From Thermoplasmata archaeon (GTDB lineage: Archaea > Thermoplasmatota > Thermoplasmata > Lutacidiplasmatales > UBA184), in the NCBI GenBank assembly GCA_035502455.1, contig DATJUI010000019.1, positions 13,378-77,377 on the forward strand: a DNA stretch of 64,000 nt, in the 5' to 3' direction. Of this stretch, positions 37,717 through 41,284 are shown piece after piece. Made by a program: the position numbers and the translations under genes. The notes below the pieces were generated by a model that saw only the letters and a list, made by a program, of their open reading frames with translations, made no database searches and had not been told where the DNA came from. Position 1 is the stretch's first letter. Each line of letters opens with the position of its first letter.

Positions 37717-37741
37717 GGAGGCGGCGACACCGCCGTAACGC

Positions 37742-37750
37742 TTTATAATA
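37742..37750. promoter_or_regulatory. near-palindromic TATA box (tttataata) shared by divergent mptE-like and ftsZ genes; SD-like aggag 10 nt before the ftsZ ATG
   Basis: Sits 26 nt from the mptE GTG (leaderless geometry) and 36 nt from the ftsZ ATG. Confidence 0.4.
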
Positions 37751-37785
37751 GAGTCCCTGCTCCCGCCGTCAGGAGAAGCCCACCG

Positions 37786-38910
37786 ATGCGGCCGCTCGCG
37801 CAGGAGATCCTCTCGCACCTTCCGACGGACAGCAAGCGCGGGGCCGAGAGCCCCGCCCCGCCGTCGAACGACGACAGCGAGCTCGAAGCGATCCTCGCCT
37901 CGCTCAAGACCAACATCAAGGTGGTCGGGTGCGGCGGCGGCGGCTGCAACACGATCAACCGGCTGTCCGAGGAGGGCCTGCAGGGCGCCGAGATGGTCGC
38001 GTGCAACACCGACGCGCAGCACCTCCTCGCGATCCACGCCCCGAAGAAGATCCTGCTCGGCCGGCGCCTGACCCGCGGGCTCGGGGCCGGCGCGCTCCCC
38101 CAGGTCGGCGAACAGGCCGCTCGCGAGGCCGAGGACGAGCTCAAGAAGGCGCTCGCGAGCTCCGACATGGTGTTCATCACCCTGGGCCTCGGCGGGGGCA
38201 CCGGGACCGGCTCCGCGCCGGTCGTCGCCCAGTGCGCGAAGGACGCCAACGGCGGCAACCCGCTCACGATCGCCGTCTGCACGCTCCCGTTCGCCTCCGA
38301 GGGGATGGTCCGGCAGGAGAACGCGATGTGGGGCCTCGAGCGCCTGCGCTCCGTCGTCGACACGGTGATCACCATCCCGAACGACCGGCTGCTCGAGCTG
38401 GTCCCCCGCCTCCCGATCCAGACGGCGTTCAAGGTCGCCGACTCGGTCCTCGCCCGGGCGATCCGCGGGATCGCCGAGATCATCACCCGTCCCGGGCTCG
38501 TCAACCTCGACTTCAACGACCTGAGGACGATCATGAAGGGCGGCGGCGTCGCCCTCATCGGGATCGGGGAGTCCGAGTCCGACAACCGGGCGGAGGACGC
38601 GGTCCTCGAGGCGATCAACTCGCCGCTCCTCCATGTCGACATCGCCGGCGCCACGGGGGCGCTCATCAACGTTACCGGCGGTCCGGACATGACGGTGAGC
38701 GAGGCCCAGAAGGCGGCCGAGGTCGTCCAGAAGACGGTCTCCCCGACGGCCCGCATCATCTGGGGCGCGGCGGTCGATCCGACGATGCAGAGCACCATCC
38801 GGGTGATGCTGGTGGTGACCGGAGTTAAATCCCCCCAGATTTTCGGGGGCGCGCCGCCCGGGTCCGTCCCGGCCCGGAAGTCGGGGCCGGACCTCGATGT
38901 GGTCCACTAG
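37786..38910 (+). CDS. ftsZ: cell division GTPase FtsZ
   Basis: 374 aa; tubulin signature GGGTGTG ([15 protein letters not shown]) and T7 loop NxDxxD-type region. Confidence 0.95.
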
Positions 38911-38917
38911 GTAGCGG

Positions 38918-39163
38918 ATGGCGTTCCTCGATCGCGCGCGCAAGGTGCAGGACCAGTTCGACGGCCGGCTCCGTACCTTCGGCCACGGCAAGTACGGCCG
39001 CATCCTTCGGATGGCCCGCCGTCCGACCTCCGAAGAGTACGTGAAGGTCCTCGAGGTGACGTGGCTCGGCGCGATCCTGATCGGGCTCACCGGGTTCGCG
39101 ATCTACATCTTCTTCACGCAGGTCGCGCCCTGGCTCTGGGCCAATTACCTCGCCGGGCTGTAG
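38918..39163 (+). CDS. secE: preprotein translocase subunit SecE (Sec61 gamma)
   Basis: 81 aa; ARRPTSEEYVKVL then a single TM helix (LGAILIGLTGFAIYIFF). Confidence 0.8.
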   Translation: MAFLDRARKVQDQFDGRLRTFGHGKYGRILRMARRPTSEEYVKVLEVTWLGAILIGLTGFAIYIFFTQVAPWLWANYLAGL

Positions 39164-39184
39164 CCCGGTCGCACCGAGGGATAG

Positions 39185-40177
39185 ATGGACGAGGAAGGGA
39201 AGGACGACGGCATCGGTCTCCTGTCGGGTGCTCCGGCCGCCGCCGCCGCGGCGAAGCCCGCGGCCGCCGCGCCCGCGCCGAGCGCCCCGGCGCCCGTCGT
39301 CGTCCCGGCACCGAAGCCCGAGACGCCGACCGCGCTCACGCTCAAGGCGGCGGACGACACCGTCCGCCCCGTGACCGCCGGCACCGTGACGACGCTCTCG
39401 GCCGTGCTCTCGAGCCGGTCGGCGGAGCCGACGACCGCGACCGTCACGATCGAGGTCGGCTACACGTCGACCTACCCCGGCGAGGGGGCCGAGTGGCCGG
39501 TCCGCTGGCTGCCGCCGGGGAAGCGGCAGTCGGTCGAGCTGTTCCCGCGCAAGGAGACCCACTCGCTCGCGCTGGCGCCGAACGTCGGCGTGCCGCTCTC
39601 CTTCGAGATCGAGGCGCCGGTCGGGGTCCGCTACGGGGACAAGGTCGAGGTCCGCCTCGCGGCGAGCGGCGCGGACGGCGGCGCGCCGGTCAAGCTCACG
39701 CTCGCGTGCGTGGCGCGCCAGGCGGTCCTCGCGATCAAGACGTCGCGGGGCTACGAGCGCGAGGTCGCGGACACGCTGCTCGCCCGCGCGGAGGAAAAGC
39801 CGGACGTCGTCTTCGCGATGCTCGTCCCGGGCTCGCTGCGCGGCTACGTCTTCGCCGAGGGGATGAGCTTCGAGGGCGTGCGCGAGATGCTGAAGGGGAT
39901 CCGCAAGGCCCGCGGCCTCGTGGAGGGCGAGACGACCCTCAAGGAGGTCGAGCCGCTCCTGGTCCCGAAGGTCACCGTCGAAGGGTTCGTCGAGGGCGCG
40001 ATCGTCGAGCTCATCAGCGGGCCGTTCAAGGGCGAGAAGGCCCGGGTCAAGAAGATCGACCAGGCCAAGGAGGAGATCACGGTGGAGCTCATCGAGGCGG
40101 TCGTGCCGATCCCGGTGACGGTGCGCGGCGACCACGTGCGGATGCTCGAGAAGGGAGGCGGCAAGAGTGGCGGATGA
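39185..40177 (+). CDS. spt5: transcription elongation factor Spt5 (NusG homologue) with in-frame about 170-aa N-terminal extension
   Basis: C-terminal 150 aa = NGN (AVLAIKTSRGYEREVADTLLARA) + KOW (GEKARVKKIDQAKEEITVELIEAVVPIPVTVRGDHVRML); N-terminal region = acidic start, Ala/Pro linker, beta-rich domain; no stop between them. Confidence 0.8.
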   Translation: MDEEGKDDGIGLLSGAPAAAAAAKPAAAAPAPSAPAPVVVPAPKPETPTALTLKAADDTVRPVTAGTVTTLSAVLSSRSAEPTTATVTIEVGYTSTYPGEGAEWPVRWLPPGKRQSVELFPRKETHSLALAPNVGVPLSFEIEAPVGVRYGDKVEVRLAASGADGGAPVKLTLACVARQAVLAIKTSRGYEREVADTLLARAEEKPDVVFAMLVPGSLRGYVFAEGMSFEGVREMLKGIRKARGLVEGETTLKEVEPLLVPKVTVEGFVEGAIVELISGPFKGEKARVKKIDQAKEEITVELIEAVVPIPVTVRGDHVRMLEKGGGKSGG

Positions 40178-40634
40178 GGTGAGCGTCCTCGTCGAGGGCG
40201 GCAAGGCGTCCGCCGGACCGCCGCTCGGGCCCGCGCTCGGGCCGCTCGGGGTGAACGTGGGCCAGGTCGTCGCCCAGATCAACGAGCAGACGAAGCAGTT
40301 CGCCGGGATGCGCGTACCGGTCGTCGTGAAGGTCGACCCGGCGACGCGCGCCTTCACGCTCACCGTCGGCCGGCCCCCGGTCGCGGCGCTCCTCCTCAAG
40401 GAGGCGAAGAAGGAGAAGGGCTCGGGCAAGCCGAAGACCGAGGTCGCCGGCGACGTGACCCTGGCCGCGGTCGCCCGGATCGCCGAGGCGAAGGGGGACG
40501 ACCTGTTCGGCCGATCGGCCGAGGAGAAGGTCAACCAGGTGATCGGCACCTGCGTCTCGCTCGGCCTCACGGTCGACGGCGAGGACCCCCGCGTCGTCCT
40601 CCAGCGACGCCTCGCGGAGCGGGGCGCCCGATGA
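40167..40634 (+). CDS. rpl11: 50S ribosomal protein L11
   Basis: 155 aa; GGKASAGPPLGPALGPLGVNVGQVV motif; 11-nt overlap with spt5. Confidence 0.9.
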   Translation: MADEVSVLVEGGKASAGPPLGPALGPLGVNVGQVVAQINEQTKQFAGMRVPVVVKVDPATRAFTLTVGRPPVAALLLKEAKKEKGSGKPKTEVAGDVTLAAVARIAEAKGDDLFGRSAEEKVNQVIGTCVSLGLTVDGEDPRVVLQRRLAERGAR

Positions 40635-40927
40635 TGGGCGGTCCGGGCGGTCCGCCCCCCGACCTCAGCAACGCGGAGATCGTCGACTACGAGGCCATCG
40701 AGGGCGACGGCAAGGTCCGCCTGAAGCTCAAGGACGGCTCGGTGGTCGAGATCCGGCTCGAGATCATGAACATCCTTCGGGCCGGGAACGACCCGAGCAC
40801 GGGGCTCCCGATCTACGTCGTGCAGTCCGCGCCGCTCGTGCGCCTCGTGGAGACGCCGAAGGAGCTGCGCAAGGCGCCCCTGCGGCCGGGCCCGAAGGAC
40901 CCGAAGGCGATCCCGGGGTTCGGCTGA
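40631..40927 (+). CDS. hypothetical small protein, translationally coupled to rpl11
   Basis: 98 aa; 4-nt overlap with rpl11 stop; occupies the slot where L1/L10/L12 normally follow. Confidence 0.5.
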   Translation: MMGGPGGPPPDLSNAEIVDYEAIEGDGKVRLKLKDGSVVEIRLEIMNILRAGNDPSTGLPIYVVQSAPLVRLVETPKELRKAPLRPGPKDPKAIPGFG

Positions 40928-40966
40928 CGCCGACAAACCCTTTAGGCCCCCCTCGCTGCCGCGTCC

Positions 40967-41284
40967 GTGGTCGACCTCCAGGAGACCCCCGCGGTCCCGC
41001 CGTTCGACCCCGGCGGCGACCCACGCCTCGGGCTGTTCGTCGCGGGCGGGATCCTGATCGCCCTCGGCTGGGGGCTCGCGGTCGCCGCGAACCTCCTCCT
41101 CCACGCCGCGGCCGGGGCGGGCGGGATGCCCGTCCTCTGGTTCCGCGTCTCCGCGACCCTCGGCGAGTACGCCTGGGGCGCCTTCGGGCTCGGCATCGTC
41201 ACCGGCGCGGTCGGCGTCGGGCTCCTCCTGGTCGGCCGCGCCACCCCACGGGGCCCGTTCGTGCTGCCCGGCGTCACCTACTGA
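40967..41284 (+). CDS. hypothetical membrane protein
   Basis: 105 aa; three hydrophobic helices; tttagg TATA-like element about 25 nt upstream. Confidence 0.4.
   Translation: MVDLQETPAVPPFDPGGDPRLGLFVAGGILIALGWGLAVAANLLLHAAAGAGGMPVLWFRVSATLGEYAWGAFGLGIVTGAVGVGLLLVGRATPRGPFVLPGVTY

Follow-up and report, generated by a model that had tools for sequence, protein, structure and literature searches.

Spt5 is a universal transcription elongation factor. Its canonical archaeal form is small and built from an NGN and a KOW domain, with 147 amino acids (aa) in M. jannaschii and 152 aa in P. furiosus and T. kodakarensis (PDB 4ZN1, 3P8B, 9BCT). In M. jannaschii Spt5, residues A4, Y42 and L44 form the pocket for the clamp coiled-coil of RNA polymerase (RNAP), and E46 contacts Spt4 (PMC2896526). 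We analyzed an spt5 gene in a 64,000-nt stretch of DNA from a Thermoplasmata archaeon (GCA_035502455.1, contig DATJUI010000019.1, positions 13,378 to 77,377 of the forward strand; 72.6% GC), referred to below as the window. The predicted protein is like canonical Spt5 in its NGN and KOW core, its clamp pocket residues, its Spt4-contact glutamate and its secE-spt5-L11 neighbourhood. Canonical Spt5, however, starts one to three residues before NGN strand beta1, whereas about 179 residues precede that strand here, and the protein is about twice the normal size. By every testable criterion we identify it, from its sequence, as a member of the Spt5 family that departs from the canonical two-domain archaeal build.

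Additional parts on proteins of this family have been described in bacteria and eukaryotes. T. maritima NusG, with its DII domain (PDB 2XHC), and A. aeolicus NusG, with its immunoglobulin (Ig)-like insert (1M1G, 1NPP), acquired an accessory globular domain, as the protein in the window appears to have done, and structures of both were among the Foldseek hits of our full-length model. In both bacterial proteins the domain is inserted within NGN, whereas here it lies N-terminal to an uninterrupted NGN. For DII, a part in recruitment and in stabilising the NusG-RNAP complex has been reported (PMC7819879). Actinobacterial NusG resembles the present protein in having a lineage-specific N-terminal appendage, whose function is unassigned there (bioRxiv 10.1101/2022.10.21.513233), but that extension is described as fully disordered, while only the first ~48 residues are predicted to be disordered here and are followed by a folded Ig-like domain. 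Eukaryotic Spt5 also carries an N-terminal, partly acidic, flexible region before NGN (PMC7819879). This region is long, acidic and unstructured, unlike the extension described here with its Ig-like domain, and the two have no sequence similarity. Our literature searches found no description of an N-terminal domain of archaeal Spt5, and no published account of what we take to be an elaborated Spt5 in uncultured Thermoplasmatota of soils and sediments. Public annotations label the long proteins 'transcription elongation factor Spt5' or 'NusG'.

We confirmed the identity of the core by profile and pairwise comparison. The C-terminal half matched the Pfam Spt5-NGN model (PF03439) at residues 183-259 (44.4 bits against a cut-off of 22.4), the Pfam KOW model (PF00467) at residues 271-301 (32.2 bits against 22.3), and TIGR00405, the NCBIfam equivalog of archaeal Spt5, at residues 183-323 (152.6 bits against 69.95, covering model positions 2-142 of 145). 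No Pfam or NCBIfam match was obtained for residues 1-175. The core was 38-42% identical to Spt5 proteins of known structure (P. furiosus, T. kodakarensis and M. jannaschii; E of about 1e-33 to 1e-34), and residue n of the M. jannaschii protein corresponded to residue n+179 here. M. jannaschii Met1 falls at about residue 180, which leaves an extension of about 179 aa. This agrees with a first-pass annotation of the window made from its letters, which had placed the beginning of NGN about 180 codons into the open reading frame (ORF). The features that it quoted were all present: the N-terminal MDEEGKDDG, a Pro/Ala-rich linker, the segments TVTIEVGYTSTYPGEGAEWPV and VRYGDKVEVRLAASG, and a GTG at codon 176. 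The clamp coiled-coil pocket is kept, with A183, Y221 and F223 aligned to M. jannaschii A4, Y42 and L44, and so is the Spt4-contact glutamate (E225, aligned to E46). G220, Y221 and E225 were invariant across the distant homologues of the long Spt5. Because the pocket residues and the Spt4-contact glutamate are retained, we infer that the core has the ordinary function of Spt5 and binds RNAP and Spt4 as usual.

The long form was found throughout a group of related archaea. A search with the full protein gave 614 hits; the best 120 of the 614 were all 325-346 aa long, with ~100% coverage and 75-100% identity, and came from metagenome-assembled genomes (MAGs) named 'Thermoplasmata archaeon'. A search with the extension alone retrieved only the same group, including an entry of 'Candidatus Lutacidiplasmatales'. 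The Lutacidiplasmatales are uncultured archaea of ~69% GC from soils and peat (PMC9287336). When one genome per GTDB species was scanned, the domain was detected in 156 species, among them UBA184, which is placed in the order Lutacidiplasmatales, and at least 156 species have the long form. Of the loci from these 156 species 80 were kept, and the counts of codons and the linker lengths given below are over 74 species. In complete loci among the 80, one tblastn segment ran through extension and core without a change of frame. The one exception had a frameshift inside the core and lay on a contig assembled at ~1x coverage. The first-pass annotation had named a stop or frameshift between the parts in homologous genomes as evidence against a fusion; we looked for one and saw none in any complete locus. 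As one of two alternatives it had considered that a novel domain is fused to Spt5; this was supported, the extension forming one ORF with the core across the 156 species-level genomes and showing purifying selection as described below.

The domain was also found beyond this clade. When 1.84 billion representative proteins were searched exhaustively with a profile, it occurred almost solely at the N-terminus of Spt5 from Thermoplasmata or Thermoplasmatota MAGs, the exceptions being two weak matches in large repeat proteins (P0141, with Ig-like repeats, and P0149). The distant matches were lower-GC Spt5 proteins of 276-406 aa from such MAGs, and they shared the architecture. W104, P145, G147, Y150 and G151 of the domain were invariant between the window protein and the distant homologues, and an hhalign comparison restricted to the domain aligned the window clade with the distant set over 114 columns (98.9% probability, E 1.3e-17). 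A word-indexed protein search with the distant-domain profile gave only two hits; when metagenomes were scanned with the distant set as seed, at least 586 related stretches were obtained. The metagenome counts in this work refer to the best 80 of these stretches (47-70% GC), and all 80 contained a motif like P-x-G-x-R-Y-G-D in the domain. We concluded from these comparisons that the predicted three-part extension is ancient within Thermoplasmatota.

Some entries gave the appearance of stand-alone domain copies. Four of them (P0130, P0137, P0140 and P0143) were rejected as frameshifted assemblies, since they turned into arginine-rich nonsense from partway on, and the remaining ones were truncated by contig ends. 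Together with the frameshifted locus L055, these four split-looking entries could mislead surveys of domain architecture. A distant metagenomic long Spt5 of 406 aa (P0146) carries an extra insertion of ~100 aa inside NGN, with a weak match to Pfam Ribosomal_L1 (E 2e-7, below the cut-off). With this insertion, Spt5 has been elaborated a second time, independently, within the phylum.

The gene also sits in its ancestral place. Among the 80 related loci, secE was present in 79 and the L11 gene in 75, and the order ftsZ-secE-spt5-L11 was shared by the window and by a distant low-GC lineage with a gene of 305 aa. The occurrence of this long gene in the same syntenic position indicated that the long form is the orthologous Spt5, not a side copy. 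The comparison showed that the gene in the window is the syntenic spt5 of its lineage, predicted to encode a bona fide protein of 330 aa. An in-frame TAG (39182-39184) directly abuts its ATG at 39185, so the ORF cannot start earlier and the N-terminus is fixed.

Whether the extension is coding and continuous with the core was judged from codon composition, substitution rates and possible start sites. The GC fractions at the first, second and third codon positions (GC1, GC2 and GC3) were 0.69, 0.57 and 1.00 in codons 49-175 and 0.71, 0.40 and 0.96 in the Spt5 core, and the codon signature of the extension matched that of ftsZ, secE, the Spt5 core and L11 in exactly this frame. The ratio of nonsynonymous to synonymous substitution rates (dN/dS) was 0.33 for the peptide at the N-terminus, 0.72 for the linker, 0.36 for the Ig-like domain and 0.07 for the NGN and KOW core. 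From these values the extension is predicted to be translated in this frame as part of the 330-aa chain, and the whole arrangement of extension and core is under purifying selection. In DNA of such high GC, where long nonsense ORFs run through the remaining frames and along the opposite strand, the upstream part might instead be a spurious lengthening of the ORF, with a true start inside it and non-coding sequence before that start. We rejected this idea, to which we leave almost no probability: GC3 of 1.00 with GC2 of 0.57 in the spt5 frame and dN/dS of 0.33-0.36 stand against it, as do the confidently predicted fold and relatives of 47% GC, in which chance ORFs are short and the architecture is the same, and a non-coding upstream part would mean a gap of 547 nt after secE. 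The first-pass annotation had raised another alternative, a separate upstream gene with an internal GTG start for Spt5 (VARQAVLAIKTS). In a wider form of this idea, the upstream 175 codons are a separate protein or only a leader, and a functional Spt5 of ~155 aa is made from the GTG at codon 176 or from an internal transcript. This GTG is placed to give an Spt5 of canonical length and is common to 16 of the 74 relatives. Codon 176, however, is GTC in 55 of these species (ATC in 2 and GTT in 1), the residue there is Ile, Arg or Glu in other homologues, and in 29 of the 74 no ATG, GTG or TTG occurs throughout codons 160-183. No sequence like a Shine-Dalgarno (SD) element precedes codon 176 in the window and no AT-rich 8-mer lies within 39144-40048, in contrast to the clear TATA-like elements upstream of ftsZ and of secE. 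That no stop or frameshift lies between the two parts in complete loci speaks against two products as well, and so does the passage of the Ig-like domain into NGN without a linker. In the 40 of 74 upstream sequences that were inspected, the long ORF started ~15-25 nt past the secE stop. The codon statistics and this start position indicated that internal initiation is not conserved and that the product is the 330-aa chain; we rejected the separate upstream gene and the internal start, and regard two products as very improbable.

The first-pass annotation had described a beta-rich module between the linker and NGN. AlphaFold2 gave a confident all-beta domain for this region, with 10 beta-strands, a predicted local distance difference test score (pLDDT) of ~90 in the full-length model, and, for the domain alone, 88.6 with a predicted template modelling score (pTM) of 0.81. 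The domain, of ~128 residues with a pairwise identity of 75%, superposes on known members of the Ig-like class as a two-sheet all-beta sandwich. Its last strand (residues 169-177) passes into NGN strand beta1 (180-185) with only 2-5 residues between them. For the Pfam families NPCBM_assoc (NEW3) and FixG_C, the window protein gave no hit and the best E in its clade was 0.016, while the distant homologue P0144 stayed below the gathering thresholds (23.6 against 24.4 and 24.7 against 25.6). Compared with NPCBM_assoc/NEW3, FixG_C, macroglobulin MG, PapD-like and GH123 N-terminal domains, identity was 4-18%, and none reached the Pfam gathering score. Those domains are mostly extracellular, whereas the domain in the window would be part of a cytoplasmic transcription factor. 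It defines a new domain family, which is unannotated. A role in nucleic-acid binding was rejected because the charge of the domain ranges from neutral to acidic in every lineage; such a surface favours protein contacts over direct binding of nucleic acid.

The peptide at the N-terminus is also conserved. Within the clade its core, IGLL[ST]G, hardly varies and follows 2-5 acidic residues; the UBA184-type variant has 5-9 acidic or polar residues ahead of the motif. The peptide reads EGIGLLSG in the window and MGLFDD or MGLLDD elsewhere, the forms in distant lineages being MGLLDD[LF], MGLFDD, MGFLDDM and MSLLE.., with MEEEGIGLLSGEE at one locus of 47% GC. In 72 of the 76 metagenome loci with a complete 5' end, the motif lies exactly at the start codon, which is ATG in 41, TTG in 24 and GTG in 7. 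The peptide is conserved across lineages whose linkers are wholly different, being rich in Pro/Ala in some and in Lys/Glu in others. The linker itself has a pairwise identity of only 40%, yet its length is held to 29-37 aa. A TTG start followed by GLFD was seen in 24 of the 72 loci with the peptide at the start (among L131-L163, the distant metagenomic spt5 genes). Gene calling from the first ATG would lose the conserved peptide and part of the extension in such TTG-start lineages.

The reading that we favour, and consider somewhat more probable than not, is that a three-part module on a canonical NGN-KOW core acts as an interaction module close to RNAP, with a docking peptide held on a tether. 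As A183 of the clamp pocket lies ~6 residues past the end of the Ig-like domain, the domain must sit beside the clamp coiled-coil's tip on the elongation complex, which would place it at the upstream edge of the transcription bubble. There it may serve as a protein-protein interaction module or, by analogy with T. maritima NusG DII, as a stabilising module for the Spt5-RNAP complex. The tether of ~34 residues, which could reach roughly 100 A if extended, would present the N-terminal peptide, and the peptide may be a short amphipathic docking motif that works by 'fly-casting' and forms a two-turn helix with its hydrophobic residues on one face. Such a motif could bring a partner to RNAP during transcription, or act as a regulator of Spt5 itself by folding back onto it. 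Several observations weigh against this proposal. AlphaFold2 docked the N-terminal peptide nowhere (pLDDT <50), and how the Ig-like domain is oriented towards NGN was not confidently predicted (full-length pTM 0.50). The dN/dS of the Ig-like domain is ~5 times that of the core, which means that the constraint is moderate. The net charge of the domain (-1 to -9, neutral to acidic in all lineages) points to no partner, and its structural matches are generic Ig-like sandwiches at 4-18% identity that give no functional clue.

Three other functions were weighed against this module-and-peptide proposal. The Ig-like domain could serve structure alone, by stabilising NGN as a built-in chaperone or in place of Spt4, with the peptide and linker as a functionless tail. 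That Spt4 mainly stabilises NGN in M. jannaschii (PMC2896526), that T. maritima DII is described as an adaptation stabilising the NusG-RNAP complex (PMC7819879) and that the domain abuts NGN without a linker would all fit. E225 is, however, invariant even in distant lineages, the peptide is kept at the start codon whether the linker is Pro/Ala-rich or Lys/Glu-rich, and linker length is constrained; we therefore regard a pure stabiliser with a functionless tail as unlikely, and replacement of Spt4 was rejected in view of the retained Spt4-contact glutamate and NGN surfaces, as far as these can be read from the alignments. The peptide might also be a membrane-insertion motif tethering transcription complexes, since its MGLFD-type form presumably resembles the MGLFD or MGLFG N-termini of the ESCRT-III superfamily, such as those of ESCRT-III, PspA and Vipp1. 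Co-transcription of spt5 with secE, which is assumed here, would suit this role, but the linkage of secE and nusG is universal, not lineage-specific. The motif offers only ~3 hydrophobic residues between acidic flanks, a negative charge unfavourable for membranes, and in the UBA184-type variant 5-9 acidic or polar residues come before it. We consider a membrane role very unlikely.

The remaining alternative concerns translation. The KOW domain of NusG/Spt5 is a coupling device in bacteria, and in most archaea spt5 lies beside the L11-L1-L10-L12 stalk operon. The peptide and hinge could mimic the tail of the ribosomal P-stalk and bring translational GTPases, or other clients of the stalk, to Spt5 bound to RNAP, coupling transcription to translation. 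In a pattern resembling the tails of aP1 and P1/P2, the peptide combines an acidic run with a pattern of G-hydrophobic-G-L-hydrophobic (DDGIGLLSG, MGLFDD) at a chain terminus, next to a flexible hinge of Ala/Pro or Lys/Glu. The eukaryotic P1/P2 tail is SDDDMGFGLFD (PMC5122897), and the archaeal aP1 tail has L100/L103/L106/F107-G108. The stalk tail sits on a flexible hinge and binds translational GTPases, and aP1 salt-bridges aEF1A with its C-terminal carboxylate (PMC4267659). The polarity is the opposite in the long Spt5, where the motif is N-terminal, whereas aP1 binding uses the carboxylate of the C-terminus. The resemblance to GFGLFD and LSALFG extends over a short stretch of just 5-6 residues, and the hydrophobic residues are spaced differently from those of aP1. 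No aP1 stalk gene was found in the window or its flanks. We hold this mimicry to be improbable, and would be equally doubtful of the broader proposal that the peptide, as a P-stalk-tail mimic or another terminal docking motif beside the RNAP clamp, recruits translation factors or the leading ribosome. If true, Thermoplasmatota would have a mechanism of transcription-translation coupling borne by Spt5 and not seen elsewhere.

For the favoured interaction module, the conserved terminal peptide offers a handle for a direct search for the partner. The module is present in at least 156 species of UBA184/Lutacidiplasmatales type and in several distant lineages, placed beside the RNAP clamp by its connection, which suggests that the elongation complex of archaea has been elaborated in lineage-specific ways, on a par with bacterial DII or the N-terminal region of eukaryotic Spt5. 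Assignment of the long ORF also corrects a risk of start-site mis-annotation in high-GC genomes. The coordinates of the gene, its parts and its neighbours are collected in Table 1.

Table 1. Features of the long spt5 locus, in positions of the window.
Feature	Coordinates	Strand	Remarks
secE (Sec61 gamma)	38918..39163	+	TIGR00327, 43.7 bits against a cut-off of 36.2; stop 21 nt before the spt5 ATG
Long spt5 gene	39185..40177	+	330 codons and stop (40175-40177); extension and NGN-KOW core in one ORF
N-terminal acidic-hydrophobic peptide, residues 1-15, MDEEGKDDGIGLLSG	39185..39229	+	Proposed tethered docking motif
Pro/Ala-rich flexible linker, residues 16-48	39230..39328	+	75% Pro or Ala; disordered in the model
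Ig-like beta-sandwich domain (predicted), residues 49-177	39329..39715	+	Outside any Pfam or NCBIfam family
Internal GTG, codon 176, candidate internal start	39710..39712	+	Ordinary Val codon
NGN domain, residues 178-262	39716..39970	+	Pfam PF03439, 44.4 bits; dN/dS 0.07
Linker and KOW domain, residues 263-330	39971..40174	+	Pfam PF00467, 32.2 bits; dN/dS 0.07
Ribosomal protein L11 gene	40167..40634	+	Pfam L11_N and L11; 11-nt overlap between its GTG start and the spt5 stop

Possible signals for expression were noticed around these genes. A clear archaeal TATA box (CTTTATAATAG, 37741-37751) stands in the region that separates ftsZ from a divergent ORF on the minus strand. Its distance upstream of the ftsZ ATG (37786) is 35-45 nt, and an SD-like AGGAG comes after it. 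The AT-rich sequence GAGTTAAATCCCCCCAGATTTTCGGGGG (38822-38845) is located at the 3' end of ftsZ, ~75-95 nt upstream of the secE ATG, in surroundings with a GC3 of ~95%. It reads as a TATA-like promoter inside ftsZ from which secE-spt5-L11 would be transcribed; the formation of a C6-N7-G5 hairpin is another possibility. GTTAAATC occurred in 73 of the 80 related loci, with 74 occurrences in 584 kb, which amounts to essentially one site per locus, and in the loci inspected this site was the one upstream of secE. GGGAGG is found 8 nt upstream of the L11 GTG; together with the overlap at 40167-40177, it would fit a translational coupling between spt5 and L11.

Two arginine- and proline-rich ORFs overlap the real genes, one of 759 codons on the minus strand (38825-41104) and one of 373 codons on the plus strand (39061-40182). 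Both are artefacts of high GC, not genes. The L1 gene is expected directly after L11 in the archaeal gene order. The ORF found right after L11 in the window (40631-40927, plus strand) encodes 98 aa; it had no convincing Pfam or NCBIfam hit, with one NCBIfam match at E 0.027, and was conserved in 74 of the 80 loci at a median identity of 83%. The ORF that follows it (40967-41284), of 105 aa, was conserved in 43 of the 80 loci.

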